Assembly: GCA_943787605.1 (NCBI GenBank)
Contig: CALSNB010000001.1
Span: 81,404 to 145,403, forward strand
Direction: 5' to 3'
DNA from: an uncultured Rhodobacteraceae bacterium
GTDB taxonomy: Bacteria > Pseudomonadota > Alphaproteobacteria > Rhodobacterales > Rhodobacteraceae
Length of the DNA: 64,000 nt
Made by a program: the position numbers and the translations under genes. Shown in pieces: positions 3,983-41,696 of the stretch. The first letter of the stretch is position 1; each line of letters opens with the position of its first letter. The notes under the pieces were generated by a model. That model did not search any database and had not been told where the DNA came from. It saw only the letters and a program-made list of their open reading frames with translations.

Positions 3983-3985
3983 AAT

Positions 3986-16758: not shown

Positions 16759-16784
16759 TCTGTTCTGTGCTTATTGTGTGATTC

Positions 16785-23474: not shown

Positions 23475-23509
23475 TTTAATATGAGTAGATACTCTTTTTA
23501 GAGTGAGCC

Positions 23510-24756: not shown

Positions 24757-25713
24757 ATGAAAGGCTTTGATAAAAGGTTCTCAGATCTACCAGATTATAT
24801 TTTGAAATGCACAGCGCAGATCTGGGAAGGTCGTGATATTGCGGCACTTGATTGGCATTACTCTGATGATCTTTTGGTGAGATCTCCCGCTGGGATAAAT
24901 CGAGGAAACACCTCAGGAAAGTCCAATACAATGGCAACTCTTTCAGAGTTTCCTGATCGTGAACTCTTCGGAGAGGACGTTTTGTGGTGTGGGGATGAAG
25001 AGATTGGGTTTCTTTCTTCTCATCGTATATTTTCAACTGCGACGCATCATGGTGGAGCTTTTGGTCAGGCAACTGGGCTGAGGGTATCCTTTCGCACTAT
25101 TGCAGACACATACTGTTATAAAAATCGTGTGTGGGATGAGTGGCTCATCCGTGATAATGCCGCTATTGCACTTCAGCTTGGACAGAATGCAAAGGATGCA
25201 GCAATAGCAATGATTAATAGGGGGGATAGAGATACGCCCTTAACCCCGACCAATGACGTAGTAGGGCCTTATAAAGGTTCTGGAAATACTGAAGAATGGG
25301 GCGAGCGACACGCAACTATACTCAGACAGATTATGACTGCTGATTTTTCGGTTATAAAAGAGGAATATGATAGAGCCTGTCATCTGTCTCTTCCTGGTGG
25401 ACAGGAAGTACATGGGTGGAGTGAGGCGGATAAATTTTGGATTGGATTACGGAGCGCTTTTCCTACTGCAGAATTCAAGATTGATCATCAGATGGGTTGC
25501 GTTGATCCATTGCTCAGCCCACGTAGTGCTATACGTTGGTCTCTGACGGGTTCCCATGACGGTTGGGGTAGATATGGATCTCCTACGGGCTCAAACGTTC
25601 ACATTATGGGTGTCAGCCACGTGGAGTTCGGACCTTGGGGATTACGTAGAGAAGTTACTCTGTTCGATGATATTTCAATCTGGAAACAGATTTTGCTTCA
25701 AACTGGACTGTAA
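24757..25713 (+). CDS. tandem SnoaL/NTF2-fold protein, type A (predicted ester cyclase-like), copy 1
   Basis: 318 aa made of two NTF2-like halves. Collinear paralog of 28746-29714 (MKGFDKRFSDLPDYIL versus MKGFSDRFSNFPDYIL; shared C-terminal GVSHVEFGPWGLRRE). Confidence 0.7.
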   Translation: MKGFDKRFSDLPDYILKCTAQIWEGRDIAALDWHYSDDLLVRSPAGINRGNTSGKSNTMATLSEFPDRELFGEDVLWCGDEEIGFLSSHRIFSTATHHGGAFGQATGLRVSFRTIADTYCYKNRVWDEWLIRDNAAIALQLGQNAKDAAIAMINRGDRDTPLTPTNDVVGPYKGSGNTEEWGERHATILRQIMTADFSVIKEEYDRACHLSLPGGQEVHGWSEADKFWIGLRSAFPTAEFKIDHQMGCVDPLLSPRSAIRWSLTGSHDGWGRYGSPTGSNVHIMGVSHVEFGPWGLRREVTLFDDISIWKQILLQTGL

Positions 25714-25814
25714 TATGGAGTTAGTTAAGTTTGATACCATTTCCCATAATACCGTTGTTCTATACAAAAGTTTATTTGAAAATAAACCCAACTTACTCAG
25801 AGGAGATTTAATCA

Positions 25815-26525
25815 ATGGTTAAGACATTAATCCCTGAAGACTTACTTGTGTTGCTACGAGAGATCGATACTCCAACGGTTTGTAACGCAATCGAAGTGGT
25901 ACAGGGTAAAAGAGGTTTTAGTCGTTTTACACGAGGAACAATGCTCCATTCTAAACCTGGGGCCTCTGCCATAGTAGGGTTTGCCCGAACTGCAAAGATT
26001 GCAGGGTTGATGCCTCCTACAGAACCTATTGATGTCACGCGTGCACGCCGCATGGACTATTTTCGTTCAATGGCTGGAGGGCAAGGCCCCACTGCTGCTG
26101 TAATTGAGGATTTAGATTTCCCCAACTGTATTGCTGGTTGGTGGGGTGAGGTAAACGTTGCAGTTCACAAAGGGCTTGGTCTCATGGGTGCTGTTACAAA
26201 TGGTGTAATGCGTGACCTGGATGTCATAGATGATGGCTTTCCTGTTCTTGCGGGTTCAATTGGGCCAAGCCATGGTTTTGTCCATGTTGTAGAAATTGGT
26301 GAACCAGTGAATATTATGGGTATTGAGATAGCTCAGGATGAGTTAATACACGCAGACAGGCATGGCGCATTAGTAATTCCATCTGACGTTATTATGTCTC
26401 TGAAAGACGCTATTGGAACGGTCATAACCAATGAATCTATAGTTCTTGGCCCGGCGCGTGAACCTGGGTTTGATATAAAAAAACTGGAAGAAGTCTGGCT
26501 TAAGTTTGAAGCAGCCAGAACATAA
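25815..26525 (+). CDS. RraA-family protein (4-hydroxy-2-oxoacid aldolase / oxaloacetate decarboxylase-like)
   Basis: IDTPTVCNA, GWWGEVN...GAVTNGVMRD and ADRHGALVIP are typical RraA/HMG-aldolase fold motifs. Confidence 0.8.
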   Translation: MVKTLIPEDLLVLLREIDTPTVCNAIEVVQGKRGFSRFTRGTMLHSKPGASAIVGFARTAKIAGLMPPTEPIDVTRARRMDYFRSMAGGQGPTAAVIEDLDFPNCIAGWWGEVNVAVHKGLGLMGAVTNGVMRDLDVIDDGFPVLAGSIGPSHGFVHVVEIGEPVNIMGIEIAQDELIHADRHGALVIPSDVIMSLKDAIGTVITNESIVLGPAREPGFDIKKLEEVWLKFEAART

Positions 26526-26619
26526 TTAATATCGATTGTAGTGAAATACTCTAAAAAATTAAAACAAGTAAGATTGATGTAGCTAACTTCTAATAAGTAA
26601 TTATCGACACAAAATTTAA

Positions 26620-27747
26620 TTATTTGGAAGCTATTTTAGCACCTTCTGAAAGGCTTTTCAGTTTTGCATAAGCAATATCTGGATCTACAGATCCAAAACC
26701 GGCAAATGTACCAAAACCACAATCAGAACCGGCTATCACTCTATCAGGCCCAACAATATCTGAAAATCGATTGATCCGTTGCGCGACAAGTTCTGGGTGT
26801 TCAATAAAGTTTGTTGTTGTGTCAACTACACCTGGCACAAGGACTTTATTATCAGGAATCTCAGACTTACGATCACGAAATACTGTCCATTCATGTGCAT
26901 GCCGTGGATTTGAGGTTTCAAATAAAAGATACTTTGCTTTTGCAGACATTAATGTTGAAAATACTTTGTCCATACCAATATCACAGCAGTGTGGTCCCTC
27001 ATAATTACCCCAACAGATATGTATACGAACCTTGTCTTCGGGGATATTTTCCAGAGCATGATTGAGCGCATCGACGTGAGACGCGGCAACTTTCACAAAT
27101 TCACTGTCACTTAGCTCATTAAAAAGCATATGGCGTGATAGGGCGAGATCAGGGCAGTCAAGTTGCAGGTCTAGACCGGATGCAACAATTGTTTCGTACT
27201 CTTCACGCATAGTGTCGGCCAATGCTGCTAAATAAGATTCACGGTTCTTGTAATATGCATTTTGTAAGAATAAAGAAATTACTCCTGGAGAGGCTGCATT
27301 CATAAAGCCACGATCTACACCAGAAGCCTTCATCGCAGACTTTAAATTTCTTATATCTTTTTGTAACTCACTTTGGTCTTTGGAAGAAACTTTACCTGTA
27401 CATTGAGGGCGAGCATATTGAGGAGTTCCTCCATCGTTTGCTAATCGTTCCAAAAAACCAGGAAACATTTTTAGGTCAGCGGGTGCGTTACGTGGACTAT
27501 CACCAGAAAAGCCGTTGTAACGGTCTTTTACATAGGTCGCATAAGATATTTTTGACGTTTCACCATCACTCACTATATCAACACCAGAGTGCACTTGTTT
27601 TACCACTGTTTGTTGAACAGCGTTAGTCATTGTGGAGTCAAATTCAATTAGATCATATTCAACCTCATTTTCGCGAGCAAAAATAAAATCAACGACCCTT
27701 TGGCTACGTGGTAAACTACCTACATGTGATGTGAAAATTTTTGTCAT
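26620..27747 (-). CDS. MetE C-terminal-domain-like protein (cobalamin-independent methionine synthase II family)
   Basis: N-terminal TSHVGSLPR, a Zn-site-like HICWGNYEGPH, and GSDCGF near the C-terminus. Size is 375 aa. Confidence 0.8.
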   Translation of the reverse strand: MTKIFTSHVGSLPRSQRVVDFIFARENEVEYDLIEFDSTMTNAVQQTVVKQVHSGVDIVSDGETSKISYATYVKDRYNGFSGDSPRNAPADLKMFPGFLERLANDGGTPQYARPQCTGKVSSKDQSELQKDIRNLKSAMKASGVDRGFMNAASPGVISLFLQNAYYKNRESYLAALADTMREEYETIVASGLDLQLDCPDLALSRHMLFNELSDSEFVKVAASHVDALNHALENIPEDKVRIHICWGNYEGPHCCDIGMDKVFSTLMSAKAKYLLFETSNPRHAHEWTVFRDRKSEIPDNKVLVPGVVDTTTNFIEHPELVAQRINRFSDIVGPDRVIAGSDCGFGTFAGFGSVDPDIAYAKLKSLSEGAKIASK

Positions 27748-27766
27748 TAGAATTCCTTTTTAGTTT

Positions 27767-28735
27767 CTAGTCGTCAACCCAAGTTGGACCTGCAGGATCT
27801 TCATTTGAAAGAATGCGGTATAAACTGGCTTCACCAGTTACAGATGGTTCAATTCGATGTGAAAACCCAGGCTCCAACAAGCATGTGTCGCCAGGATTTA
27901 ATACCACGTTACCGCCTTCCCATGATAGCTTCCAGTGACCTCGCATTGGCATCAAAACTGCAGAGTTTTCAAATGATTCAGGAACTTCAAGGATAGGACT
28001 ACGTGTCAGAAAGTCGATATTGAACCCAGGCTTGTCTGGTAATATACCTTTTTCCCCGATCACCTGTATGGGTTCATGTGCTGCAAATGCCATTAGATCA
28101 TTATAACGGGCGACATAGCGAGGTACCAAGTTTTTGGCTTTAGGCTCTGGTACCTGAGCCAAGAAATCTTTTGAAAGGAGTGGCATAGGCTTAAGGTTTT
28201 CTGGCAAAGTCTCCCCTTTTTTACTATCATAGAGACGTCCGTTTTCACCTAAAATCAAACCGTGCTCTGCGGCGTCTTGGATTACTTGAGGAGCCCAAGT
28301 GACACCGCCTCCAGCATCATCTCCACCCAAAATTGCCATAATCATCCCATAATTTGAACCAATATTTTCAAAGCCACGAAAGATTCCAGTTGGAATATTT
28401 ATAATATCACCTTCCTCTAAAACTACCTCTCCCGCAGTTCCCCAGCGACCCCAAAAAAAGCGCCAACGTCCTTTGAGTACAAAAAACACTTCGGCTGTAG
28501 TATGTATATGTAGTGAGTTTCTGCATTGCGGTGGTTGGCCAGCCGCTCCTATATTAAAGCCAGGTGTCTCTCTCAAGTGGACGTGTTGGTCAGCACTTTC
28601 ACTAACGCCACCACCTATAATAGTGAAGTTTTCTTTTTGATCACTACCTGGAGTGTGAGCATCAATAAAAGCTGTCTTACATGGAATTAAGTCACCATAC
28701 CGAACAATTCGTTTTTCTATTTCATTGGGTGTCAT
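27767..28735 (-). CDS. bicupin-domain protein
   Basis: Two beta-barrel cupin modules: LHIHTTAEVFFVLKGRW...GDIINIP and MPMRGHW...GDTCLLEPGFSHR. Confidence 0.7.
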   Translation of the reverse strand: MTPNEIEKRIVRYGDLIPCKTAFIDAHTPGSDQKENFTIIGGGVSESADQHVHLRETPGFNIGAAGQPPQCRNSLHIHTTAEVFFVLKGRWRFFWGRWGTAGEVVLEEGDIINIPTGIFRGFENIGSNYGMIMAILGGDDAGGGVTWAPQVIQDAAEHGLILGENGRLYDSKKGETLPENLKPMPLLSKDFLAQVPEPKAKNLVPRYVARYNDLMAFAAHEPIQVIGEKGILPDKPGFNIDFLTRSPILEVPESFENSAVLMPMRGHWKLSWEGGNVVLNPGDTCLLEPGFSHRIEPSVTGEASLYRILSNEDPAGPTWVDD

Positions 28736-28745
28736 AGTGATTTCA

Positions 28746-29714
28746 CTATCCTTTTTTTAGTGCAATTTGTTTCCAAATTACAGTTTCATCAAATAAGGTA
28801 TATTCACGTCTCAGGCCCCAAGGCCCAAACTCTGCATGACTTATCCCCATGACATGAACGTCTGCACCTGTAGGCTGACCAAAAGTACCCCAGCCATCAT
28901 GTTTGCCGGTTAGACTCCAGCGAAGGGCCGCGCGTGGTGACATCTGAGGATCATCGCGACCAATCTGATGATGAATTTCAAATTTGGCAGAGGGGAATGA
29001 AGATCTTAACCCAATCCAAAATGCATCAACTCCATCAGTTGATACGAGTTCTTTCCCACCAGGGTAATAGCCAGTGATCGCGCGATCATATTTCTTGGGT
29101 ATTACGTTGAAATTTGCTGACATGATTTTAGTTAAAATTTCAGAATATTTGTCACCCCATGCATTATTGTTACCACGACCAGTATATGGGCCTACTTTAT
29201 CAATTGATGGGTGAAATGGCTTAACACATTCTGCTGGCCCACCCTCATCTTCAATCTGTTTAAGTGCATATTGGTATGGGTCCCAACCCATCTGGCGTAC
29301 AATTGCTCCTTGATCACGGATCAACCATTCATCATTGATTTGATTATTTATTGCATGACAATCTGCTACTATCCGATATTTTATAACCTTTCCTGTTGCT
29401 TTTCCGTATACACCATCACCAAGATGAGTGGCTGTCGACAAAATTCGATGTGACGATAACATTCCGTCTTCTGGGGTCCCAGACCAGATAACGTCTTCAC
29501 CCAGCAGACGTCGATCTGGGAATTCGGCGAGAGTTGCCATGGTCGCACCAATTACGTTCGCATTACCAATAACAAGAGATCCTGGAGATCTTACAATAAT
29601 ATCATTAGAATAATATGCATGTAGTGTCCCTATTCCACGGTCTTCCCAAATCTCTTTAGTAATCCCTAGTATATAGTCAGGGAAATTAGAAAAACGGTCT
29701 GAAAAACCTTTCAT
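28746..29714 (-). CDS. tandem SnoaL/NTF2-fold protein, type A, copy 2
   Basis: Paralog of 24757-25713. ATG 29714-29712 forms an ATGA overlap with the LacI-gene stop. An alternative start at 29723 would add MEH. Confidence 0.7.
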   Translation of the reverse strand: MKGFSDRFSNFPDYILGITKEIWEDRGIGTLHAYYSNDIIVRSPGSLVIGNANVIGATMATLAEFPDRRLLGEDVIWSGTPEDGMLSSHRILSTATHLGDGVYGKATGKVIKYRIVADCHAINNQINDEWLIRDQGAIVRQMGWDPYQYALKQIEDEGGPAECVKPFHPSIDKVGPYTGRGNNNAWGDKYSEILTKIMSANFNVIPKKYDRAITGYYPGGKELVSTDGVDAFWIGLRSSFPSAKFEIHHQIGRDDPQMSPRAALRWSLTGKHDGWGTFGQPTGADVHVMGISHAEFGPWGLRREYTLFDETVIWKQIALKKG

Positions 29715-30727
29715 ATGCTCCATCCTTTCGGAACTTTTGCTGATCCTCGAATAATTAATGGACTAGATATTTTTATATGTTTTGAGGTAACTTTAGGATC
29801 ACGAATTTTTTCTAACATTAAACGCACAGTTTGGTCTACCATCAAATTCGATCTCTGCCGTAGAGTCGTTAAGTTGTAAGCGGCCCATGATGCTGGTGGA
29901 ACATCATCATACCCAATAACACTTACATCATTTGGAATACTTAGGGCTAGCTCTGAACGTAGAACATCCATCACAGAGAACGCCATATGATCGGTCGCTA
30001 CAAATATTGCATCTGGCTTTGTCGGTCCAACAAACATTTCACGAGTAACTCGTTTAGCAGTGTCTGTTGAAAAGTTACCTAAGGCATGTGAAAAGAGACT
30101 TATGCCTGCCTTTTTTAAACCAGCACGAAAACCGGCTTCTCGATCACGTTGAGTGGAAGCTCCTGCCCAACCACCGATATAGGAAATACGTTCGTGTTTT
30201 GCTTCGCACAAAAACCTTGCCGCAGTCTCCCCACCTAGAAAATTATCTGATGTTACGGCACTATGAGAAACTCTGTCTTGAGTACGGTTAAATAACACAA
30301 CAGGGACACCTGCCATCTCACAACGCGCCGTTATATCATTTGAAATACCAACACTTGCAGTTATAATCCCATCAACTTGGTAGTCGAGAAGTTCTTCAAT
30401 TACTTGTTCTGTGGATTGATCATCATTTGATGCCATGAAAACTAGGACATGATAACCTTGCGCTTTGAGAGAGTTAGATAATTTTTCGAGGGCTGCTGGA
30501 TAGAAATAATTGTCTAGATAAGCAACAACAAGCCCGATTATACGACTTTTCCCAGTGATCAGAGAACGCGCAAGAACATTTGGCCGATAGCCCAACTCTT
30601 GGGCAGCTTCTCGAACTTTTAAGACGGTTTTATTGCTTGCTGAGGCACCAGGAGTAAAAACTCTACTCACAGCTGACTGGCTTACACCGGCGCGTTTTGC
30701 GACTTTTAGAGCTGTAACTTTATTCAT
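29711..30727 (-). CDS. LacI-family transcriptional regulator
   Basis: N-terminal helix-turn-helix VTALKVAKRAGVSQSAVSRVF, followed by a periplasmic-binding-protein-like sugar-binding core of 338 aa. Confidence 0.9.
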   Translation of the reverse strand: MNKVTALKVAKRAGVSQSAVSRVFTPGASASNKTVLKVREAAQELGYRPNVLARSLITGKSRIIGLVVAYLDNYFYPAALEKLSNSLKAQGYHVLVFMASNDDQSTEQVIEELLDYQVDGIITASVGISNDITARCEMAGVPVVLFNRTQDRVSHSAVTSDNFLGGETAARFLCEAKHERISYIGGWAGASTQRDREAGFRAGLKKAGISLFSHALGNFSTDTAKRVTREMFVGPTKPDAIFVATDHMAFSVMDVLRSELALSIPNDVSVIGYDDVPPASWAAYNLTTLRQRSNLMVDQTVRLMLEKIRDPKVTSKHIKISSPLIIRGSAKVPKGWSI

Positions 30728-30742
30728 TGATCTGTAGTCCTG

Positions 30743-31790
30743 TCATGATGCTACCTCACTCATGATTGGAATAGAGCCAGTTGCTCGTGCTTTATTAAAA
30801 GTCCGCATTCTTCCAAGGACATCTACTCCCAATTGCCGATATACATCTAATAAATCTACCAATACCCAGTTCTCACGAATTTGACCGCGCTCAATACGCC
30901 AAAAATCTAGACTTCGCAGTGTTATCATACGGCCACTCGGTGCGATACCCATCCATCCATCGTCACTAAGGGTTTGCTTCATATTCGGCCAACCAGTAAC
31001 AGCTACATAAGGCCCATCTGCAAAAAAATGATAGGTTAACTCATCTCGGAAACTACCACGATCTGGCATTCCCATGAGAAACGGCATTTGATGCCAATTG
31101 CGAAAGCCCGAGATGCCACGAGCCTGTGCCGATCCCAGCGGGTCCATACCAGTTCATTTTTGGATGCCAATAGCGAGGCATTTCCATTGCTTCCTGAGGT
31201 TCTTCAGGATGCTTACTCATAGCTGTTAGCATGTCAATCACAAGTGTTTTAGACTTAGTTGATACATCGTGTTGATAATCCCCTGTCTGCAACCCATCAC
31301 ATGTTGCAGGCCCTGGTATTAAGCCTTCTCGGCCAAGACTTGGGGCCATTGGCCAAGCACCTGCTTGCATCATCAGCTCAGGGATATCCCAAATTGCCTG
31401 TATTTCAATAATTTTTTCATTTTTAATTTTGTAATACTCGTGGAACCTCATATGGGCTAAATGGCCTGTGGGTTGAATGTCAAGGAAAGGCTTAACGAAA
31501 GTTCCAATATAAGTACCTGCAATCCCAACCCAATCATCCCCATGATCATCAGTTCCTGCCATTATGATCCAAGGTCGTTTTTCAACATCTGGTAATGAAA
31601 AGTGCAATTTCGCTAGAACGGATTCATAATATTGATCGCCTGGCATATCTCCAAATGGATGACACATATGGACAACCATATCTTTTGCCATGATGGCATT
31701 TAGCTCTTTGCGTACACCTTCCTCTGACCAGTTATACATTGCAGCGTTCAATCCTGCAGTAAGGGTCCGAAGGTCGGATAAATCCGTCAT
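30743..31790 (-). pseudogene. tandem SnoaL/NTF2-fold protein, type B, frameshifted
   Basis: Track ORFs 31053-31790 and 30743-31147 together are collinear with the intact 333-aa paralog 38139-39140. The reading frame switches right after ...NWYGPAGIG, near 31120-31127. Confidence 0.7.
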
Positions 31791-33115
31791 TTGATAGTTT
31801 CCTTATGAGGTGCTGACCCACCATATGGAATATTTACGCCACCATAGCGACGCACCCGCAGATTACATTGTTCTGCATGCCCCACAAATCCTTCTAGAAG
31901 GCATAACCGAGAGCCATAAGCTCCAATTTCAGCAGCGGCCTTATCAGTCGTAATTTTCTGGTAACTATGGGTTTTGAGAAATTTCCCTACCCAGAGTCCA
32001 CCAGTATATCGTCCAGCCTTTTTTGTTGGCAACGTATGGTTTGTGCCGATAACTTTATCACCATTGGAAACATTCGTCCGTGCACCTAGAAATAATGCCC
32101 CGTAACAAGTCATGTGCTCTAAAAACCAATCATCCCGATCAGTCATTACTTGGACGTGCTCTGACGCGATATCATCAGCAATCCTTAGCATTTCTTCATA
32201 GGTATCACAGAGGATCACTTCGCCATAATCCTCCCAAGATTTTCCGGCAGTGTCAGCTGTAGGGATAATTTTTAAAAGGCGATTAATTTCCACGATAGTA
32301 GCATTTGCCAATTTCTCTGAGTTGGTAACTAGTACGGCAGGTGAGTTGTAGCCATGTTCTGCTTGCCCCAGAAGATCAGTAGCACATAGTTCAGCATCAA
32401 CCGTATCATCAGCAATTACCATAGTTTCTGTTGGGCCAGCGAATAAATCAATGCCAACGCGACCAAATAATTGACGTTTTGCCTCAGCCACAAAAGCATT
32501 ACCAGGACCGACGAGCATGTGTACAGGTTCAATTGTTTCAGTCCCAATTGCCATTGCACCAACAGCTTGAATGCCACCCATTACATAAATTTCATGCGCA
32601 CCCCCAAGATGCATTGCAGTTATAGCTGCAGGGTTTGGTTTGCCGTTGAAAGGAGGAGTACAAGCAATAATCCTCGGTACACCTGCAACAGAAGCTGTTA
32701 ATACAGACATATGCGCTGAAGCAACCATTGGGAATTTTCCGCCTGGCACATAACAACCAACTGATTGTACGGGAATATTTTTATGACCCAAAATAACACC
32801 TGGCAGCGTTTCGATTTCAATATCTAGCATACTTTCTCGTTGGGCTTGCGCAAAGTTTCGTACCTGCTCTTGTGCAAATTTTATATCAGCTAGCTCTCGG
32901 TCAGAAAGTGTTGCCATAAGATCTAAAATTTCTTGATTGGTAAGTTTAAAGTTTTGAGGGTTATAACTGTCAAATTTGACAGAAAGATCCCGCACCGCTC
33001 TGTCACCTCGTGTTTCTATATCTAATAATATCTCTTCAACAATAGATTTTGTCTTGGCATCATCTTGTGCACGTTCTTCGTCTGGTTTTCCACGCTTCAA
33101 GTAGGTTATAGCCAT
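31787..33115 (-). CDS. histidinol-dehydrogenase-family NAD-dependent (amino)alcohol dehydrogenase
   Basis: 442 aa with [13 protein letters not shown] and GTNHTLPT motifs of the HisD fold. It sits in a catabolic operon rather than a his operon. Confidence 0.85.
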
Positions 33116-34526: not shown

Positions 34527-35557
34527 TAGACAGCTTTCCTATTAAAATCATTCCACGTTCTAATTAGAACTGGGATAAGTAAAACTGCGACGCCCAAGAT
34601 TGTTAACACTGATGTAGCACCAGCAGACCCAAAGAACGTACCTTCTCCACCAGCTAGATCATTGTAAATAATCCATGAAAGGGAAGTTGCGCTAGCTTGA
34701 GCAGAGAATCCAACAATAGGTTCAAAAACTCTAAAATTATCCATTAATTGAATTAAAGAAATAAAAACTATAAGCGGCACTAGGTGTGGTAAAACGACAT
34801 AGCGGGTGCGTTCCCAACGTGAAGCACCATCTATCATTGCTGCTTCAATTGTTTCGGACGGAACAGTTTGCAGGCCTGCGTAAAAGACAATGAAAGCAAA
34901 GGGCGCAGAATGCCAAACACCGTAAATAATTAACATTATCCAAGTTAAAGCTGGTGAGGCTTTCAAAGATAAATTTGGATCATCAAGAAGCCACTGTAAG
35001 CTAGCTCCAAGAATACCTTTAGAGTCAATCATCCAAAATAAAATTAAAGATCCAATTAATGGTGTTACGATCATAGGTAAAAGTGAAACAAAAATAGTGG
35101 GACCCTTTAGTTTTTTTGGTAAACTATTCACACCAAGAGCGATAAAGAAACCGAGCAGTAGAACTAGAGGCGTTACTATAAACGTATAAGTGAGGGTAAA
35201 AGCGAGAGCACGATAAAAAGGTAAGTTGTAGACTTTACTAAAATAAATACTCCAATTAGCACTGTCATTCCAAGCAGACTTTAATTCAGTGACGGCAAGA
35301 TGATTGCGGTTTGTGTATGTGCCAAAGCCGTTGAACTTACCTAAAGGTTTCTCTTCCTTTAATTGTGAAGTTGCGGCAACATCAATTTGTACTTCGTCTT
35401 TACATCCAAAGGGCCCACAGCTTTTCACTTCCTTTAGTACTGCGCCGTGCTCAATATATAATGATTGAATGAACACAGAACCGATTGGTAGTGCAATAAA
35501 AAGTACCATCGCCACAAGTGACGGAAGAATAAACCAAAAGAAGGTACGGTTTTTCAT
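34526..35557 (-). CDS. ABC transporter permease (CUT1 family, MalF-like)
   Basis: 343 aa with an EAA loop EAAMIDGASRWERTRYVVLP. Its stop overlaps the next start by 1 nt (TAATG). Confidence 0.85.
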   Translation of the reverse strand: MKNRTFFWFILPSLVAMVLFIALPIGSVFIQSLYIEHGAVLKEVKSCGPFGCKDEVQIDVAATSQLKEEKPLGKFNGFGTYTNRNHLAVTELKSAWNDSANWSIYFSKVYNLPFYRALAFTLTYTFIVTPLVLLLGFFIALGVNSLPKKLKGPTIFVSLLPMIVTPLIGSLILFWMIDSKGILGASLQWLLDDPNLSLKASPALTWIMLIIYGVWHSAPFAFIVFYAGLQTVPSETIEAAMIDGASRWERTRYVVLPHLVPLIVFISLIQLMDNFRVFEPIVGFSAQASATSLSWIIYNDLAGGEGTFFGSAGATSVLTILGVAVLLIPVLIRTWNDFNRKAV

Positions 35558-35586
35558 TTTTAATGCCTATTAAAGATTCTTATTTA

Positions 35587-35608
35587 GGGAAGGGGTGTCC
35601 CCCTTCCC
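35587..35608 (-). other. GC-rich intercistronic hairpin between the binding-protein and permease genes
   Basis: gggaagggg (35587-35595) pairs with ccccttccc (35600-35608) around a 4-nt loop. No U-run follows on the transcribed strand, so it is more likely an mRNA stabiliser than a terminator. Confidence 0.4.
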
Positions 35609-35618
35609 CATAGGTATC

Positions 35619-36854
35619 TTATTTTAAGAAACCTTTTTCTGTAGCTGCAGCAGTATACGCAGCCTCGACATCTGATAAAGCCTGTTCAGCACTTTCAGAT
35701 CCCTGCAAGAAGTCTGAGATTTCAGAACCTAGTGCGGAGTGTAATGTACCCATGAATGGTAACATTGGATATGGTGCAGCTCCACCGGCTGCTGTGGCAG
35801 AAACACCAGCAGATGCTTTACTTGGTGTATAACCTTTGCCCAACCAAACAGCAGCAGCATTATTTGCTGCTATTACTTCAGGTGAAATACCATGCATTAA
35901 AGCTACAAATGTTGCCTCTGCATCCTCGTCGGATATGTTTGCTGAAATAGATATACCATCCCACCAAAGAGTTGACGCTGGACGTGATTTTCCACCCCAG
36001 GTTGGTGCGCTAGAAAGAACAGTTGATGACTCTACAGCCTCACTTGAACCTTCACCATCCATCACTGCTCCACCACGGGAACCCCACATTGTAGCTAGTG
36101 CTAGATTACCTGCTTCCCATTCTGCTTGTGTAGCATTTGAGTCGAAGGTCATGAAATCTGGATGAGAGTATGCAACTAATGATTTTAGCATGTTTAGTGT
36201 TGCAACACCGTGTGCATTATTTACAGCAACTTCTGCAGTTCCGGGTTTAAAGAAATCACCGCCAGTACCCATGTACATATTGACAAATTCTTCTCCAAGG
36301 TTCCAACCAGCTTTTGTATTTAAAGCTACAGGATAATCCATCAAACCAGCAGATCTGATTGCTTTTGCTGCAGCTAGAACGTCTTCATAGGTTGCAGGAA
36401 TACTGCTTACGCCTGCTTTTTCTAGGATGTCAGACCGAGAAAATAAATGCTGCGCGTTTGCCATAAATGCAACAGCCATAATTTTACCGTCTACTGTAAC
36501 CATTTGGCTTGGATTTAAGCCTCCACCATGCTTTGCAACCAAGTCATCCAAAGAACGTACTAGACCGTCGTTCATAAGGGTTACTAATGTAGAGTTACTA
36601 GTAATTACTGAGGTATACTCAGCTGGGTTAGCTGTAAGAGCCGCTACCATAATATCTTTGTGATCTTTAGTGAGGTTTGTTTTTACCGTTACACCGTCGC
36701 CAGCACAAGTACTTGCTCCAGCTGTCACAGCTTGGATTGCTGGAAAGTCATTTGAAAGAACATTGACGTTACCAGAAGAAATTCCACACCCCGCCATTGC
36801 TGTATTACCTAGCATGATGAATGCTCCGGCTAACATTACTTTTTTTAGAAACAT
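35619..36854 (-). CDS. ABC transporter extracellular solute-binding protein (family 1, carbohydrate/polyol type)
   Basis: ATG 36854 has AAGGAG upstream and gives MFLKKVMLAGAFIMLGNTAMAGC (signal or lipoprotein-like). About 410 aa. The track ORF extends to 36914. Confidence 0.85.
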   Translation of the reverse strand: MFLKKVMLAGAFIMLGNTAMAGCGISSGNVNVLSNDFPAIQAVTAGASTCAGDGVTVKTNLTKDHKDIMVAALTANPAEYTSVITSNSTLVTLMNDGLVRSLDDLVAKHGGGLNPSQMVTVDGKIMAVAFMANAQHLFSRSDILEKAGVSSIPATYEDVLAAAKAIRSAGLMDYPVALNTKAGWNLGEEFVNMYMGTGGDFFKPGTAEVAVNNAHGVATLNMLKSLVAYSHPDFMTFDSNATQAEWEAGNLALATMWGSRGGAVMDGEGSSEAVESSTVLSSAPTWGGKSRPASTLWWDGISISANISDEDAEATFVALMHGISPEVIAANNAAAVWLGKGYTPSKASAGVSATAAGGAAPYPMLPFMGTLHSALGSEISDFLQGSESAEQALSDVEAAYTAAATEKGFLK

Positions 36855-36936
36855 CTTTTTCTCCTTGTTATCATGGGAAATGACCAAAATGACCATTTCT
36901 CCGTTAATCCCCATTATGGGGGTCGTCTAAAGGGGA

Positions 36937-37986
36937 TTAATCCCCAATTCGCGCACCTGTTTTGGTGTCAAACAAATGGCAAATCTCTTTGGGTACTGAA
37001 ATGTGAACCATGTCACCAATTTTTACCCGATAATCTTTGTGAGCCTTGATAGAAACAAGTTCATCATTAACACGTACTGTAATCATTGTGGCGTCACCTA
37101 ATAATTCCATTGTGTAGACTGCGGCGTGGATATCACCGCCCTCAGTCACGGTGCTTGCATCTTCAGCACGGAATCCCAATTGAGCAGGCTGATTTTGAGC
37201 ATTAAGCCCTTCGACTTTTAGGTCGCCGCCTGTAAAGGTATTATTAAATAAATCTCCACTCACTAAGTTCATGGCAGGTGCTCCAATGAAGCTTGCTACA
37301 AATGCGTTTGCTGGTCGATCATAAATTTCAGTTGGGCTACCAACCTGTTGCACAATCCCATCTTTCATAACCACTACGCGGTCGGCAAGGGTCATAGCTT
37401 CGATCTGATCATGGGTCACATATATTGTTGTGACTTTCAGTTCATGACTAAGATTTTTAATTTGAGCCCTTGTGGATACGCGAAGCTTAGCATCTAAATT
37501 TGAAAGAGGTTCATCCATTAAAAAGACGTTAGGTTCGCGAACGATAGCACGTGCAAGCGCAACACGTTGTCTTTGACCTCCTGAAAGTTCAGCAGGTTTT
37601 CTATGTAAAAAATCATCTAACTCAACCATAGCAGAAGCTCTCATTACACGTTCTTTATGTTCAGACTCAGGAATTTTTCTTACTTTTAGTGGAAATCGAA
37701 TATTCTCATAAACATTCATATTTGGATAAAGGGCGTAAGATTGGAAAACCATTGAGACATTTCGATCTTTGGGGTCGAGATCATTTACTCGCACATTATC
37801 AATAATAATATCTCCACCAGATACCTCTTCAAGTCCAGCAATCATACGCATAGTGGTTGTCTTCCCACAACCAGACGGCCCTAAAAGTACAAGAAACTCT
37901 TCATCTGCAATTGTTAGGTTTAAGTTTTCTACTCCTACGAATGAACCCCATCGTTTAGATAAGTTTCGAAGTTTGATTTCAGCCAT
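36937..37986 (-). CDS. ABC transporter ATP-binding protein (MalK/UgpC type)
   Basis: Walker A GPSGCGKTT, signature LSGGQRQR, Walker B FLMDEPLSNLD, and a C-terminal regulatory TOBE-like domain. ATG at 37986; the track start at 37995 is GTG. Confidence 0.9.
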   Translation of the reverse strand: MAEIKLRNLSKRWGSFVGVENLNLTIADEEFLVLLGPSGCGKTTTMRMIAGLEEVSGGDIIIDNVRVNDLDPKDRNVSMVFQSYALYPNMNVYENIRFPLKVRKIPESEHKERVMRASAMVELDDFLHRKPAELSGGQRQRVALARAIVREPNVFLMDEPLSNLDAKLRVSTRAQIKNLSHELKVTTIYVTHDQIEAMTLADRVVVMKDGIVQQVGSPTEIYDRPANAFVASFIGAPAMNLVSGDLFNNTFTGGDLKVEGLNAQNQPAQLGFRAEDASTVTEGGDIHAAVYTMELLGDATMITVRVNDELVSIKAHKDYRVKIGDMVHISVPKEICHLFDTKTGARIGD

Positions 37987-38016
37987 TGGTGGCACCTAAA
38001 CAAAAATATTTCAAGA

Positions 38017-38032
38017 TTGCATACGTTTGCAA
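38017..38032. promoter_or_regulatory. candidate LacI-family operator TTGCATACGTTTGCAA
   Basis: 16-bp palindrome with 14/16 symmetric positions and a central CG, lying in the 152-nt divergent intergenic region between the ABC operon and 38139. It fits the general TG-N-AA-N-CG-N-TT-N-CA architecture. Confidence 0.45.
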
Positions 38033-38138
38033 AAAGACTACTATAAGGTCAAGCATTTACTGTTCTTTACATAAAAATGAGTTCATTTTGATTAAAAAAT
38101 AGGTGTAATGTAGTAATTTATGGTAAAGGAAATGTTAA

Positions 38139-39140
38139 TTGACAGACTTCAGAAACGAAAAACGCCTTGTTAGAAATTACTACGAAGCACTTGATTCTTC
38201 GGAAATTGATAAAATCACAGATGTTTTAGTTGAGTTTACTGCGCAAAATTATACATGGCGTGCTTTTCACCCTTTTAATCTACAAACAGACGCAAAGGTT
38301 GTTAGTGAGATTTTCTGGCAACCTTTTCGAAAATCTATTCGACATATGCAACGTCGCATGGATATATTTTTTGCTGGAAAAAACTTTATAGATGATGGGA
38401 CGTCGGTTTGGGTGTGTTCAATGGGGCATTTAATGGGATTGTTTGATGAGCCGTGGATTGGAATAAAACCGACAGAAAAAATTATTATGTTCCGTTATGC
38501 CGAGTTTCACAAAATTGAGAATGGTAAAATTTCTGAAACAGCGTTCTATTTTGATATTCCACATCTTATGATCCAAGCTGGGTATCACCCTTTTAAAGAT
38601 CCAACGGCCATGCATTTGGTGCAACCGGGTCCTGCCACTCATGATGCCTTATTATATAATGATGCTCCTGAGGCTGAAGGAAAGAAAACAATGGATGTTA
38701 TGCATGCAATGATTAATGATCTAGGTACATGGCAATTGGGGCTCCCATTAGAGGAAGAGCTCGCAAGAACTTGGCATGATGATATGACCTGGTGGGGGCC
38801 AGCGGGCATTGGCGCTACCTATACAATTGAGCGGTATGCTAAACAGCATTCGGGCCCTTTTCGTGCTGCGTTTAGTGATCGGTCTGGGACGGGACACATT
38901 GCCCGTATAGCTGAAGGACACTATTCTGGTTTTTTTGGTTGGCCTAACTTTATAGCAAAGCCTACAGGTGGTTTTATGGGGCTCTCTCCAAGTGAAAAAC
39001 TTTGTGAGTTCCGTGTTATTGATATCTATCGACGTGAAGGCAACAAACTAAAGGAGAATTGGGTATTTATTGATATACTTCACTTTTTTAAACAACAAAA
39101 TATTGATATTTTAGATAATATTGAGGCTTATTTAAAATGA
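38139..39140 (+). CDS. tandem SnoaL/NTF2-fold protein, type B, intact copy
   Basis: TTG start with AAGGAAA 8 nt upstream. It begins MTD like its paralog and has two NTF2-like halves (FHKIENGKISE..., IDIYRREGNKLKENWVFID). Confidence 0.7.
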   Translation: MTDFRNEKRLVRNYYEALDSSEIDKITDVLVEFTAQNYTWRAFHPFNLQTDAKVVSEIFWQPFRKSIRHMQRRMDIFFAGKNFIDDGTSVWVCSMGHLMGLFDEPWIGIKPTEKIIMFRYAEFHKIENGKISETAFYFDIPHLMIQAGYHPFKDPTAMHLVQPGPATHDALLYNDAPEAEGKKTMDVMHAMINDLGTWQLGLPLEEELARTWHDDMTWWGPAGIGATYTIERYAKQHSGPFRAAFSDRSGTGHIARIAEGHYSGFFGWPNFIAKPTGGFMGLSPSEKLCEFRVIDIYRREGNKLKENWVFIDILHFFKQQNIDILDNIEAYLK

Positions 39141-40007
39141 ATATGATTGATTCACATCACCATTTATGGGACCTAAAAGCAGTAGAGTACCCCTGGTTGA
39201 ATGCTAAAGGTGTAAAGCGTTTTTTTGGTGATCCGACACCAATTCAGCGTAATTACCTGCTTGATGAGTTCAGACTTGATGCACAAAAAAATGGCTTTGG
39301 ATCTTCTGTTCATATTCAGGTGGGAGCAAAAGATGGTCTTGCTGAAGCGAAGTGGGTGCAATCTATCAGTGATGCTAACCCTGATTGGCCAATGGTTCAG
39401 GTTATTTTTTGTGATCTAACTTCCCCTGATCTTGAAACTGTCCTAGACAGCTATTTAAAGCTACCGTCTGTTCGTGGTGTAAGGCAAATTATTGGCCGTG
39501 CACCAGAGGAGGATAACAAAACAGGTACCAATGATTTATTGAATTCGGAAGCACTTTTGCGAGGATTACGTAGCGTTGGTGAAAGAGGCCTTTCATTTGA
39601 TTTACAACTTATTCCTGAATTGATGGAGGCCACAAGTAAGATACTGAAAGATGCGCCTAAAACGAAGAGTTGCCCTATGCCATGCGGGGTCTCCCCATGA
39701 TCGAACTACTAAGGGTTTGGAAATATACGCGGAGCAATTGGGCTATATGTCAAGTTTAAGTAATGTTACTTGCAAACTGTCAGGCCTTGGTATGTTTGAC
39801 CATGGATGGACTACAGATTCTATTAAAACTATTATTGATATCTGTTTGAAGCAGTTTGGTGAAAATCGCTGTATGTTTGGTTCTAATTTTCCTGTTGATA
39901 GCCTTTATTCAAATTACGACCGGCTGATTAGTAGTTATAAAGATATTATCCCAAGAGAGTGTCACTCCTCAGTTTTTGAAAAAGTAGCGCAACGTTTTTA
40001 TTTCTGA
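39137..40007 (+). pseudogene. amidohydrolase_2-family (metal-dependent hydrolase/decarboxylase) gene, frameshifted
   Basis: The N-terminal part (IDSHHHLWD...) is track ORF 39137-39700. The C-terminal part (RVALCHAGSPHD...MFGSNFPVD) is ORF 39651-40007 in another frame. The switch lies near 39659-39668 in aaaacgaagag. Confidence 0.7.
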
Positions 40008-40202
40008 CTTAAAAATAATTATTATACGTAACACACTTATATATAAGTAATTTAACAGATGTGTTATAAAACAGAAAATTCCTCAACTTATTCTAAGTAG
40101 ACTTGGCGTTAGTAATTTGTTAAATTTTTTTATAAATTTTTAAATTACTTGACGCTGCAGATTCTCCTGCAACCATTTTAAATTAATAAGGAATCTCGCA
40201 AA

Positions 40203-40598
40203 ATGCCTAAGATTGTTCTTCGACCAAAAACCCTCGACTTTCAACCGCGACCAACATTTCCATATTCGCCTGGTGCACGAGGTGGAAATATGGTGTTTAC
40301 TGCTGGTCAAGTCGCGTGGGATCACACTGGTAATGTGATAGGTCTTAATGATGTTCGAGCACAAACTATCCAAACACTTTCAAATGTTAAAGCTGTTCTG
40401 GAGGAGGGTGGGGCTGTTCTCGGTGATGTAGTTAAGTGCAACGTCTACTTAAAGGATATGAAAGACTTTCAAATAATGAACGAAGAGTTTGCTAAACTCT
40501 TCCCAGAAAACCCACCAGCCCGAACAACAGTACAAACACCAATGGCAGAACCAGAGATGTTAGTAGAGATCGAAGCAATAGCTTATATAGGTGAATAA
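40203..40598 (+). CDS. RidA/YjgF-family reactive enamine/imine deaminase
   Basis: 131 aa with GGNMVFTAGQV...VKCNVYL...PARTTVQ...VEIEAIA, the typical YjgF/RidA pattern. Confidence 0.85.
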   Translation: MPKIVLRPKTLDFQPRPTFPYSPGARGGNMVFTAGQVAWDHTGNVIGLNDVRAQTIQTLSNVKAVLEEGGAVLGDVVKCNVYLKDMKDFQIMNEEFAKLFPENPPARTTVQTPMAEPEMLVEIEAIAYIGE

Positions 40599-40691
40599 AG
40601 TACTTAATGAAGAGGGTTTATTCCAACCTATTAAGAATAATTTTGAATAGGCTTCTATAGAACGTTTTTGGTATTAAAAAGAAATTTTGTT

Positions 40692-41696
40692 ATGTCATAT
40701 TTTCCAACAGTAAAGCTGGTTACAGATCGGACCCCCATTCAACCTCTTGCTCAACTGTCGTCACTGTTAGGGATTGATTTGTGGATAAAGCGTGATGACC
40801 TTGCTGGAACTACTTTGGGGGGGAATAAAGCAAGGCAATTAGAATATTATCTTGGAGCAGCTGTTGCAGGGGAGGCCGATACGATTTTGATTACAGGAGC
40901 TGTGCAATCAAATTTTGTTCGAATAGCTGCGGCATCTGCTGCTAGCTTGGGTATGCAAACGGTTATTCAACTTGAAGACAGAGTGGATCGGGACGACCTC
41001 ATCTATAGGCAGTCGGGAAATGTCCTGTTGAACAGTATTTCTGGTTCACGGGTGATTTATTATCCGCATGGTGAAGATGAAAATGGTGCAGATGCTGCTT
41101 TGTTTGCTGAGGCTACAAGGCTACGCAAACAAGGAAAAACGCCGTATGTGATACCTCTTGGAATGCAAAAGCCACCACTCGGGGCACTTGGCTATATACA
41201 TTGTGCGGAAGAGTTACAGTCTCAGGCACCAGAGTTCGACTTTGCAGTTGTCGGTTCTGGAAGTGGCTTGACACATCTTGGGCTCGTTGCTGGATTTAAG
41301 GTGACTGGGGCTAAAACTGTGACAATCGGTAGTTGTGTGCGGCGATCAGAACATCAACAATACAAAAGATTACAAGACTTGGCAGCTGCTTTTGACAAAA
41401 TGCAGGAGTGTCCTGGCCGTCTCAATAAACAAGACTTTGAAGTTTGGGATGGGGCATTAGCACCAGGGTATGGTCAATTGGGCTCCGTTGCTGCCCAAGC
41501 GATGTCCCTGCTTGGCAAGTATGAAGGGCATATTGTTGACCCAACATATACCGCAAAGAGCTTTGCTGCCATTCCTGCACTGGTAATGTCGGGTCGCATT
41601 CCTAAAGGCTCGAGGGTGGTATTTATTCACACTGGTGGGTTGGGTGCTGTCTTTGCCTACCAAGAAGATATTCGTTCGGCCCTTACTGACGTCTGA
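40692..41696 (+). CDS. PLP-dependent ACC deaminase / D-cysteine desulfhydrase / cysteate sulfo-lyase-family enzyme
   Basis: TPIQPL...IKRDDL...GGNKARQLEY (PLP Lys) and ITGAVQSNF align by eye with E. coli DcyD. ATG 40692 is chosen over the TTG at 40668. Confidence 0.85.
   Translation: MSYFPTVKLVTDRTPIQPLAQLSSLLGIDLWIKRDDLAGTTLGGNKARQLEYYLGAAVAGEADTILITGAVQSNFVRIAAASAASLGMQTVIQLEDRVDRDDLIYRQSGNVLLNSISGSRVIYYPHGEDENGADAALFAEATRLRKQGKTPYVIPLGMQKPPLGALGYIHCAEELQSQAPEFDFAVVGSGSGLTHLGLVAGFKVTGAKTVTIGSCVRRSEHQQYKRLQDLAAAFDKMQECPGRLNKQDFEVWDGALAPGYGQLGSVAAQAMSLLGKYEGHIVDPTYTAKSFAAIPALVMSGRIPKGSRVVFIHTGGLGAVFAYQEDIRSALTDV

Follow-up and report, generated by a model that had tools for sequence, protein, structure and literature searches.

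A stretch of 64,000 nucleotides from an uncultured Rhodobacteraceae bacterium (assembly GCA_943787605.1, contig CALSNB010000001.1, positions 81,404 to 145,403 of the forward strand; hereafter the window) was analysed for a gene cluster rich in SnoaL/NTF2-fold proteins at positions 24757-41696. The cluster is a repressor-controlled catabolic operon linked to an ATP-binding cassette (ABC) transporter and built from uncharacterised enzyme subfamilies, and such an uptake-and-breakdown cluster is common to hundreds of marine and soil bacterial species. Its core (26620-39140), together with an inverted gene for an RraA-like protein, is read as a LacI-repressed operon that would import a small polar metabolite and degrade it to pyruvate and central intermediates. 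That the cluster forms one co-regulated catabolic unit is held with high confidence, because the block is colinear between genomes, has a conserved operator palindrome and is joined by start/stop overlaps. A small methylated metabolite of algae or fungi is the probable substrate, most likely O- or N-methylated and ending in a primary alcohol that bears a 2-hydroxy or 2-amino group. For the more specific model of a methylated substrate, oxidation of a hydroxymethyl group and a pyruvate-forming aldolase at the end, our confidence is evenly balanced.

Gene map of the cluster

The gene map, coordinates and families given in an earlier note on this DNA were reproduced by open reading frame (ORF) listing and Pfam scans; on recheck, its three ATGA overlaps, its two TAATG overlaps and its upper limit of 82 nt for the gaps all proved exact. 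In the ORF listing, eleven minus-strand genes run from 37986/37995 down to 26620 and encode, in this order, an ABC ATPase, a binding protein (SBP_bac_1), two permeases, a single SnoaL protein (Sno1), a Histidinol_dh protein (HisD-like), the tandem SnoaL protein B1 (SnoB1), a LacI regulator, the tandem SnoaL protein A1 (SnoA1), a bicupin and a Meth_synt_2 protein (MetE-like). The genes for SnoB2, an Amidohydro_2 protein, RidA and a pyridoxal phosphate (PLP) enzyme are located on the divergent side, those for SnoA2 and the RraA-like protein at the convergent far end. Every NCBIfam match of the cluster proteins was below the cutoff of the respective model, except for the generic hisD domain model; the labels "hisD", "methionine synthase" and "polyketide/ester cyclase" on cluster genes are misleading. 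The features are as follows.

24757-25713, plus strand: tandem SnoaL protein type A2 (SnoA2; 54% identity to A1)
25815-26525, plus strand: RraA-like protein, putative pyruvate-forming class II aldolase/decarboxylase (Pfam RraA-like, 49 bits)
26620-27747, minus strand: single-domain MetE-like (Meth_synt_2) Zn protein, final gene of the minus-strand operon (Pfam, 39 bits)
27767-28735, minus strand: bicupin (Pfam Cupin_2)
28746-29723, minus strand: tandem SnoaL/NTF2 protein type A1, signature gene of the cluster (Pfam SnoaL and SnoaL_2; probable start 29714)
29711-30727, minus strand: LacI-family repressor, RbsR-like (Pfam LacI and Peripla_BP; NCBIfam RbsR-like)
30743-31790, minus strand: tandem SnoaL/NTF2 protein type B1, frameshifted here (two ORFs, 31053-31790 and 30743-31147)
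31787-33115, minus strand: HisD-fold NAD/Zn dehydrogenase of a distinct HpsN-like subfamily (Pfam Histidinol_dh, 442 bits)
33115-33648, minus strand: single-domain SnoaL/NTF2 protein, Sno1 (Pfam SnoaL, 58 bits)
33645-34526, minus strand: ABC permease 2 (Pfam BPD_transp_1)
34526-35557, minus strand: ABC permease 1 (Pfam BPD_transp_1)
35619-36914, minus strand: CUT1-type periplasmic solute-binding protein (Pfam SBP_bac_1; probable start 36854, with an AAGGAG ribosome-binding site)
36937-37995, minus strand: ABC transporter ATPase, MalK-like with TOBE domain, first gene of the operon (Pfam ABC_tran and TOBE_2; probable start ATG 37986, homologues of 349 aa)
38017-38032, no strand: candidate LacI operator TTGCATACGTTTGCAA in the divergent promoter region, sole perfect match in 64 kb
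38139-39140, plus strand: tandem SnoaL protein type B2 (SnoB2), sharing the operator region with the operon (Pfam; 29% identity to B1)
39137-40007, plus strand: Amidohydro_2 protein, lactonase-like, frameshifted here (Pfam on both halves, 39137-39700 and 39651-40007)
40203-40598, plus strand: RidA (Pfam, NCBIfam)
40668-41696, plus strand: PALP/PLP enzyme of the D-cysteine desulfhydrase/CuyA family (Pfam, NCBIfam)

One extra G near position 31124 splits the gene for B1, and an extra A near 39665 splits that for Amidohydro_2; both frameshifts are specific to this assembly. In contigs sharing 98-99.6% identity with the window, B1 is intact (348 aa; loci L003, L005 and L006) or other indels are present, and an intact Amidohydro_2 of 288-290 aa is present in the near-identical contigs L002, L005 and L006. 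Because near-identical contigs carry intact alleles or different indels, both frameshifts are most likely assembly errors and not the mark of pseudogenes.

Conservation and regulation

A 9-sequence SnoA alignment was used to scan one genome per species, and a SnoA relative was found to be encoded in at least 588 stretches of this collection. The 80 best loci were compared using a tblastn matrix of the window proteins, and gene frequencies were taken from the 59 loci with full 10-kb flanks. One block, ATPase-binding protein-permease-permease-Sno1-HisD-SnoB1-LacI-SnoA1-bicupin-MetE-RraA, was colinear in most of the 80 loci, which belong to Rhodobacteraceae, Roseibium, SAR116, Geminicoccaceae, Kiloniellaceae, Phyllobacteriaceae, Halomonas, Oceanospirillaceae and others. 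Among the 59 full loci, each permease was found in 98%, the ABC ATPase and LacI in 92% each, the HisD-like gene in 90%, Sno1 and SnoB1 in 88% each, the bicupin in 85%, the MetE-like gene in 81% and RraA in 63%. Being colinear in most of the 80 loci, across many families, the arrangement is far from chance.

In most related loci that cover the region, a 14-bp core palindrome, TGCAWACGTWTGCA, stood 35-50 bp ahead of the ATPase gene, often in two copies 54-55 bp apart and sometimes once more before Sno1; it is predicted to be the expected LacI operator. With a SBP_bac_1 protein, two BPD_transp_1 permeases, a MalK-type ATPase, a LacI repressor and a palindrome with central CG, the cluster has the make-up of a LacI-regulated CUT1 uptake operon. 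The binding protein has remote PDB relatives only, which are sugar, polyol or oligosaccharide binders, including SmoF (sulfoquinovosyl-glycerol). The view of the locus as a catabolic unit that has an importer and a regulator to itself was thus borne out by its conservation as a block (frequencies 81-98%) and by the LacI-type palindrome.

Two extensions of that view did not hold. The earlier note had called the pathway complete. Clustering of unassigned ORFs yielded two more cluster members, a KduD-like short-chain dehydrogenase/reductase (SDR) gene between SnoB1 and LacI (86% of related loci) and a PcaD-like alpha/beta hydrolase gene between MetE and RraA (54%); both are missing from the window, whose copy has lost them. 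The 17-kb span had also been taken as one pathway, whereas SnoA2, Amidohydro_2 and the RidA-PLP pair are lineage-limited and a scan of the window found no such operator ahead of SnoA2-RraA or RidA-PLP. SnoA2, with an orthologue only in near-identical contigs of the window's lineage, is a lineage-specific duplicate of A1. A divergent orthologue of SnoB2 (at least 40% identity) is present in 32% of the full loci. Amidohydro_2 was found in the window's lineage and in one other (L014), where it also adjoins SnoB2. By a separate look-up beyond the 10-kb flanks, RidA and the PLP gene were found to follow SnoB2-Amidohydro_2 only in the close relative L089; in Amylibacter sp. (L087) an alpha/beta hydrolase gene stands at the Amidohydro_2 position, Amylibacter marinus has RidA alone on the opposite strand, and neither of these two genomes has the pair, which is a neighbour of the cluster and not a conserved member. 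In two contigs 98-99% identical to the window, L002 (2025-3095) and L006 (578-1594), an extra gene for a 338-356-aa protein with no Pfam match lies on the opposite strand between Amidohydro_2 and RidA.

Several marine metagenome contigs, as well as the metagenome-assembled genome (MAG) GCA_002697345.1, contain the locus itself with 98-99.6% identity, and its protein relatives are named Rhodobacteraceae/Paracoccaceae (Ascidiaceihabitans, Planktomarina, Amylibacter, HTCC2255). Cultured carriers of the cluster include Octadecabacter arcticus 238 (pOA238_160, OA238_RS27720-27800), several Ruegeria, among them R. conchae, Marinovum algicola DG898 and Tritonibacter mobilis, as well as many Roseibium, Octadecabacter and Vibrio. 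Low-GC pelagic roseobacters (relatives named Amylibacter, Planktomarina and Ascidiaceihabitans) and SAR116 carry it too. The distribution of the cluster covers sunlit marine waters, the phyllosphere and desert soils. As the operon is so widespread, its substrate is likely common in marine dissolved organic matter, with a bacterial sink not yet assigned.

Three further copies deserve mention. In the metagenome contig L004 (14380-21249), the bicupin-MetE-RraA segment is tandemly duplicated at 99.85% identity, which may be an assembly artefact or a real duplication. In contig L075 (CAJQHZ010000018.1), assigned to "uncultured Flavobacteriales" by binning, the locus has 97-100% protein identity to that of the window, which probably reflects a binning error. 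A plasmid of Phaeobacter inhibens DOK1-1 (L090) has a decayed copy with the ABC ATPase and a SnoA-like gene only, flanked by IS3 and IS481 transposases; it is too disrupted to be informative.

SnoaL/NTF2 proteins

Five SnoaL genes, four of them two-domain fusions in two paralogue families, had been counted, and Pfam SnoaL/SnoaL_2 scored above the gathering threshold in all five; the count stands for the window and is the top of the range, related loci having three to four. The identity between B1 and B2 extends over their full length (E 3e-47), Sno1 is 27% identical to the C-terminal half of SnoB1, and no similarity between types A and B was detectable by BLASTP. The SnoA1 family comprises 241 clusters at 50% identity (E<1e-30), and SnoA1 orthologues in the 80 loci are 68-98% identical. 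Only remote PDB matches were obtained for the NTF2 proteins, namely the polyketide cyclases 1sjw, 2gex, 6hnn and 8ysb, and the NCBIfam model SnoaL_meth_ester gave 31 bits against a 200-bit cutoff.

The cluster proteins have the NTF2 fold in common with the SnoaL/AknH/SnoL/IdmH cyclases and hydroxylases; unlike these, they include two-domain fusions of about 320-350 aa in two families, with three to five copies per catabolic operon. SnoaL, SDR, alpha/beta hydrolase, cupin and methyltransferase families all take part in anthracycline tailoring, and source annotations call the NTF2 genes "ester cyclase" or "polyketide cyclase", so a biosynthetic polyketide-tailoring set, or a mosaic of unrelated functions, was considered. 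Such a reading is hardly credible: in contrast to the context of SnoaL cyclases, no polyketide synthase (PKS) gene was identified in the loci examined, nor was a nonribosomal peptide synthetase or other core biosynthetic gene; the transporter is an importer, not an exporter; the LacI repressor has a conserved operator and the predicted route ends in a pyruvate aldolase; and gene order is strict, with translational overlaps, across several bacterial orders. In the catabolic operon, the NTF2 enzymes would act as substrate-specific entry steps; they are placed first because minimal variants (L044 and Vibrio) keep just the transporter and NTF2 genes.

HisD-like and PLP enzymes

In the PDB search, the nearest solved relative of the HisD-like enzyme was HpsN, a sulfopropanediol 3-dehydrogenase (383 bits, against 251 bits for the best HisD). 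The enzyme passes the generic TIGR00069 domain model (427 against 244 bits), hence the automatic "hisD" labels. G-D-Y is a motif of histidinol dehydrogenases (HisD). The cluster enzyme carries G-K-F-P-M and G-D-K and is encoded in a LacI-controlled transport operon, which sets it apart from histidinol dehydrogenases. The hallmark motif of HpsN is G-R-Y-A/S-H, the terminal His126 of which binds Zn or recognises the sulfonate, and HisD has G-S-A-P-L (PMC11382572). In its place, the window enzyme has G-K-F-P-M, as do 64 of the 70 HisD-like matches of the loci and all but three cluster copies; both Halomonas copies have G-G-Y-P-M. The G-D-K motif, with the equivalent of HpsN Lys353 (a sulfonate contact), is kept in the cluster enzymes; type-2 paralogues carry the lysine too, as S-D-K, so G-D-K is not specific. 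These paralogues form a second cluster-associated HisD subtype (G-R-Y/F-P-I/L ... S-D-K-C), which co-occurs with an amidase. A Paracoccaceae locus (L082, 15-17 kb region) encodes a separate, genuine HpsN with G-R-Y-S-H, 47% identical to the cluster enzyme and only a few kb away; the two subfamilies coexist in one genome. The cluster enzyme thus shares with HpsN (PDB 8v35; PMC11382572, PMC12814064) the HisD fold, the Zn/NAD+ chemistry and the G-D-K lysine, while the genes of the dihydroxypropanesulfonate (DHPS)/cysteinolate context, hpsOP, suyAB, slcD, cuyABC and those of tripartite ATP-independent periplasmic (TRAP) transporters, are not in the cluster context. Like HpsN, it probably takes a terminal primary alcohol with a 2-hydroxy or 2-amino group to the acid in a four-electron oxidation.

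An amino-alcohol sulfonate such as cysteinolate had been guessed as the substrate. In this or a DHPS-type route, the HisD-like enzyme would give cysteate or sulfolactate, a CuyA-like PLP enzyme would split off sulfite, and the enamine would be quenched by RidA. A pathway of this kind exists for cysteinolate (CuyC-HpsN-CuyB-CuyA, with the DegT-family racemase CuyC named as marker; PMC12814064), HpsN is the nearest solved relative and G-D-K is kept, and the best NCBIfam match of the PLP enzyme is the D-cysteate sulfo-lyase CuyA. That match, however, reaches 281 bits against a 450-bit cutoff, and the sulfonate-binding His126 is Met in the 64 of 70 matches named above, with the true HpsN of L082 encoded separately. 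Pfam scans found neither CuyC nor CuyB in the cluster, no DegT or Asp/Glu-racemase gene, and no sulfite exporter or sulfite dehydrogenase. The transporter is of the sugar-type CUT1 class, whereas DHPS uptake is described via TRAP systems (PMC13335735). The RidA-PLP pair adjoins the cluster only in the window's lineage; as the pair is lineage-limited and no operator precedes RidA, the chain from HisD oxidation through PLP lyase to RidA is left without comparative support. Cysteinolate and DHPS, having failed the HpsN motif test, were rejected as substrates, and the sulfonate reading, largely refuted already, is extremely improbable.

MetE-like, RraA-like, bicupin and lactonase-type proteins

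The MetE-like protein (375 aa, single domain) was aligned to 3rpd, and H243-I-C245, E277 and C343 were invariant in nine orthologues; these H-x-C, E and C residues are presumably the Zn ligands known from MetE. Orthologues are about 61-85% identical, with a mean column identity of 83% among the nine aligned. Two-barrel MetE has about 750 aa and a folate-binding N-domain. The cluster protein, with a best NCBIfam score of 92 bits against a cutoff of 406, does not belong to the two-barrel type, and over all methionine-synthase models (cutoffs 258-576) it scored at most 92 bits. Single-domain ("core") MetE synthases share with it the Meth_synt_2 barrel of about 375 aa and the H-x-C, E, C residues; unlike them, the cluster protein is encoded in a catabolic operon and scores far below the model cutoffs. 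Its methyl donor would presumably be the pathway substrate.

In the RraA-like protein, the motif T-N-G-V-M-R-D (N-G-V-x-R-D) was invariant, which agrees with the G-x-x-R-D signature of RraA-like HMG/CHA aldolases and oxaloacetate decarboxylases; the roles of its residues are assumed from the Pseudomonas putida enzyme. The sole PDB relative was an uncharacterised protein, and no LigK model was reached. The gene is inverted in the window and elsewhere co-directional as the final gene of the operon, and L066, Pantoea, Deinococcus and Priestia have a gene for an HpcH/HpaI aldolase instead of it. The bicupin has an invariant H76-x-H78-x3-E82 in its N-terminal cupin, Arg120 at the motif-2 His position and a degenerate C-terminal cupin; its best profile matches, weak ones, were to acireductone dioxygenase (ARD; E 2e-4) and the quercetinase YxaG (E 8e-4). 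The nearest NCBIfam models were the PcaD enol-lactonase for the alpha/beta hydrolase, L-fucono-1,5-lactonase (88 bits) for Amidohydro_2, and KduD, gluconate 5-dehydrogenase and rhamnose 1-dehydrogenase for the SDR. After SnoB2, either an alpha/beta hydrolase or Amidohydro_2 is encoded at the same position.

The lower pathway of protocatechuate-4,5/gallate degradation (lactonase LigI, hydratase LigJ and the RraA-like CHA aldolase LigK/GalC) likewise combines an RraA-fold aldolase yielding pyruvate, a lactonase of the Amidohydro_2 or alpha/beta-hydrolase type and a ring-cleaving metalloenzyme, a likeness that would suit a tertiary hydroxy-acid intermediate. Unlike that pathway, the cluster is without a LigAB/GalA dioxygenase, LigC or a PrpF-like isomerase and has a sugar-type ABC importer.

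A rival reading is a non-phosphorylative oxidative route for an O-methylated sugar, polyol or cyclitol (methyl-inositol, methyl-hexose). In it, a sugar acid would be formed by the SDR and lactonase, and oxidation of the terminal CH2OH group would fall to the HisD-like enzyme; the NTF2 proteins would be dehydratases or isomerases, the cupin would be a KduI-like isomerase and RraA would be a keto-deoxy-acid aldolase. The CUT1 transporter and RbsR-like regulator, the sugar- and polyol-binding remote relatives of the binding protein, the nearest models of the SDR and of Amidohydro_2 and the methyl-removal function in every variant are all consistent with this. Yet neither a kinase nor a dehydratase of the enolase superfamily or the IlvD type is encoded in the cluster, the cupin did not match the KduI family, and NTF2-fold enzymes are not known from sugar-acid pathways; in addition, an amidase and second HisD-like gene in terrestrial loci and EutBC in L030 point to nitrogen in the substrate. 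Such a route is unlikely on balance, if still a serious possibility. Two further candidates were rejected: unsaturated uronates (KduI/KduD), the cupin not being of the KduI family, and methylthioribose (methionine salvage), with no ARD Pfam match and no kinase.

Natural variants

Variants of the cluster bear on methyl removal. In L030 (Desulfosarcinaceae MAG, 3604-20541), the same transporter, SnoA (72% identical) and SnoB are accompanied by EutBC, VOC, a URO-D-B12 fusion and an aldehyde:ferredoxin oxidoreductase. In L066 ("delta proteobacterium" MAG, 282-14976), ten genes are inserted between the HisD-like gene and SnoA1, including those for an SDR, Ldh_2, a creatininase-family protein, a FucI-like protein, URO-D, an HpcH aldolase, a corrinoid protein, a pterin-binding methyltransferase and VOC. 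Creatinine, for which this creatininase-family gene is the sole basis, was rejected as a substrate. The trio in L066 and the fusion in L030, both variants of an anaerobe type, resemble the corrinoid three-component O-demethylases and methyltransferases of anaerobes (URO-D methyltransferase I, corrinoid protein, pterin methyltransferase II); unlike these, the window and nearly all aerobic copies use a cobalamin-independent MetE-like Zn protein, and L066 has both. The occurrence of corrinoid trio or fusion beside SnoA and SnoB suggests that the same methyl-removal step is needed.

In Vibrio pelagius ATCC 25916 (L091, plasmid NZ_AP025505.1), the cluster consists of the transporter and four tandem NTF2 genes only, with soxBDAG-purU directly downstream and no larger betaine island. 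L099 shows the same minimal arrangement next to soxBDAG-purU, and about 5 kb beyond these genes L091 and L099 carry a DUF1852 gene paired with that of a 344-aa "methionine synthase", which we take to be of the core-MetE type.

A related module was found in Pantoea dispersa, Deinococcus, Roseibium aggregatum, Sinorhizobium medicae and Priestia filamentosa. It contains genes for LacI, an SDR, a cupin, an alpha/beta hydrolase, an HpcH or RraA aldolase, one to four tandem NTF2 proteins, one or two HisD-like enzymes, an amidase or C-N hydrolase and an ABC or major facilitator superfamily (MFS) transporter; the type-1 HisD-like enzyme of Pantoea is 66% identical to that of the window.

The adjacency of soxBDAG-purU in Vibrio, and of EutBC, aldehyde oxidoreductase and corrinoid methyltransferase in L030, speaks for an N-methylated compound with a glyceryl or ethanolamine end, such as glyceryl-trimethylhomoserine, a betaine-lipid head group in deacylated form, or N-substituted/methylated ethanolamines. 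The HpsN-like enzyme would oxidise its CH2OH group, the SDR and NTF2 enzymes would break the ether or C-N bond through an oxidation followed by beta-elimination, and the MetE-like protein would act like betaine:homocysteine methyltransferase. The HpsN-like active site with its sulfonate His replaced by Met fits, as does the remote match of the binding protein to SmoF, by which a glyceryl solute is possible. However, the evidence is adjacency in one genome each, the bicupin, lactonase and pyruvate aldolase are left without a clear role, and the terrestrial amidase is unexplained, so that this substrate appears quite improbable. Plain choline or betaine was rejected, the transporter being of the wrong class.

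Proposed pathway and candidate substrate

The proposed degradation of a methylated substrate would comprise seven steps. Sno1, SnoB1/B2 and SnoA1 would free or rearrange substituents by cofactor-free hydrolysis, elimination or isomerisation (step 1), and the MetE-like Zn protein would transfer the methyl group to a thiol (step 2). The HpsN-like HisD enzyme would convert -CH(OH/NH2)-CH2OH to the carboxylate with 2 NAD+ (step 3), the SDR, lost in the window, would oxidise a secondary alcohol (step 4), and the bicupin would cleave or isomerise the resulting enediol or diketone (step 5). A lactonase-type hydrolase, Amidohydro_2 here and the alpha/beta hydrolase elsewhere, would open a lactone or ester (step 6), and the RraA-like enzyme would cut a 4-hydroxy-2-oxo acid to pyruvate and a second fragment (step 7). 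Judged from the gene content of the variants, methyl removal would be taken over by MetE-like, corrinoid methyltransferase or sarcosine oxidase proteins, variant by variant; the terminal 2-hydroxy or 2-amino alcohol would be oxidised by the HisD-like enzyme in aerobes, whereas in L030 EutBC, by a B12-dependent deamination, and the aldehyde oxidoreductase may act on it instead; and the predicted pyruvate-forming aldol cleavage would fall to RraA or HpcH, after hydrolysis of the lactone or ester by either hydrolase.

Several points weigh against this pathway. The order of steps and the NTF2 chemistry are pure inference, and all the cluster enzymes are distant from characterised ones. For the bicupin, the PDB sequence search gave no match and the profile matches are weak. 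AlphaFold2 models, computed from alignments of close homologues only, were unusable for both SnoA1 (20 sequences, pLDDT 37.2) and the bicupin (18 sequences, pLDDT 52.6). The evidence from variants comes from single loci, and L030 and L066 are MAG contigs in which mis-binning or chance adjacency is possible; L066, moreover, retains a MetE-like gene beside its corrinoid set, which is not a simple replacement. Terrestrial variants are without the MetE-like gene.

As a candidate substrate class, mycosporines, mycosporine-like amino acids (MAAs) and (4-deoxy)gadusol are put forward speculatively and at a low probability. Chemically, these compounds combine a methoxy-cyclohexenone ring with a hydroxymethyl group borne by a tertiary carbinol, and amino acids or amino alcohols are N-linked to them. 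They would fit because of the methoxy enol ether, the hydroxymethyl group and the N-links, a reductone suited to an ARD/quercetinase-like cupin, a tertiary hydroxy-acid suited to a CHA-type aldolase, and the habitats. With such a substrate, the tandem NTF2 enzymes would hydrolyse enaminone or imine C-N bonds and dehydrate the ring, the cobalamin-independent MetE-like enzyme would take the enol-ether methyl, possibly yielding methionine, and the HpsN-like enzyme would oxidise the ring hydroxymethyl, leaving the carbon skeleton to a reductone-type cupin and a CHA-type aldolase. The second HisD-like enzyme and amidase of terrestrial loci would handle fungal amino-alcohol side chains, e.g. glutaminol. 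The sarcosine oxidase of Vibrio, which hints at N-methyl and not O-methyl, is a poor fit to mycosporines. The lack of a MetE-like gene in terrestrial variants also counts against this class, although the mycosporines of fungi carry methoxy groups too.

Full-text literature searches found no MAA catabolic genes and no paper describing the cluster, in line with the earlier note, which had recognised no described pathway; the coverage of these searches was incomplete, and their outcome is absence of evidence only. If true, the mycosporine assignment would give the first catabolic pathway for mycosporines, MAAs or gadusol, the UV-sunscreens of algae, corals, fish eggs and fungi. The cluster further contains four or five enzyme subfamilies for which no reaction is known (two tandem-NTF2 families, a third HisD/HpsN subtype, a catabolic core-MetE and the bicupin). 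Its cultured carriers, predicted operator and natural variants make it testable, and the variants constrain the chemistry.

Other genes of the window

The window has a G+C content of about 40%; it gave no Rfam match, no tRNA was found in it, and promoter and terminator scans performed no better than shuffles. Beyond SnoA2 are located genes for an MmgE/PrpD-family protein (20995-22311, minus strand), a PhyH-family 2-oxoglutarate oxygenase (22680-23474, plus strand) and a 308-aa multi-pass membrane protein with no Pfam match (23510-24436, minus strand). These upstream neighbours of SnoA2 (20995-24436) are conserved only in the window's lineage, bar a match of the membrane protein in L029 (44% identical).

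A TRAP transporter (DctP 2412-3413, DctM 3986-5254) is encoded between two TauD/TfdA-family dioxygenase genes (963-2060 and 5338-6357), and this region (963-6357) is a candidate for another catabolic unit. A bacteriorhodopsin-family (proteorhodopsin-type) gene was found at 9894-10592; upstream of it (7054-9788) are a gene for a LuxC-like acyl-CoA reductase and an ORF of 444 aa without a Pfam match. Rhodopsins are uncommon in roseobacters; HTCC2255 (NAC11-7) presumably has one, which would fit the source of the window.

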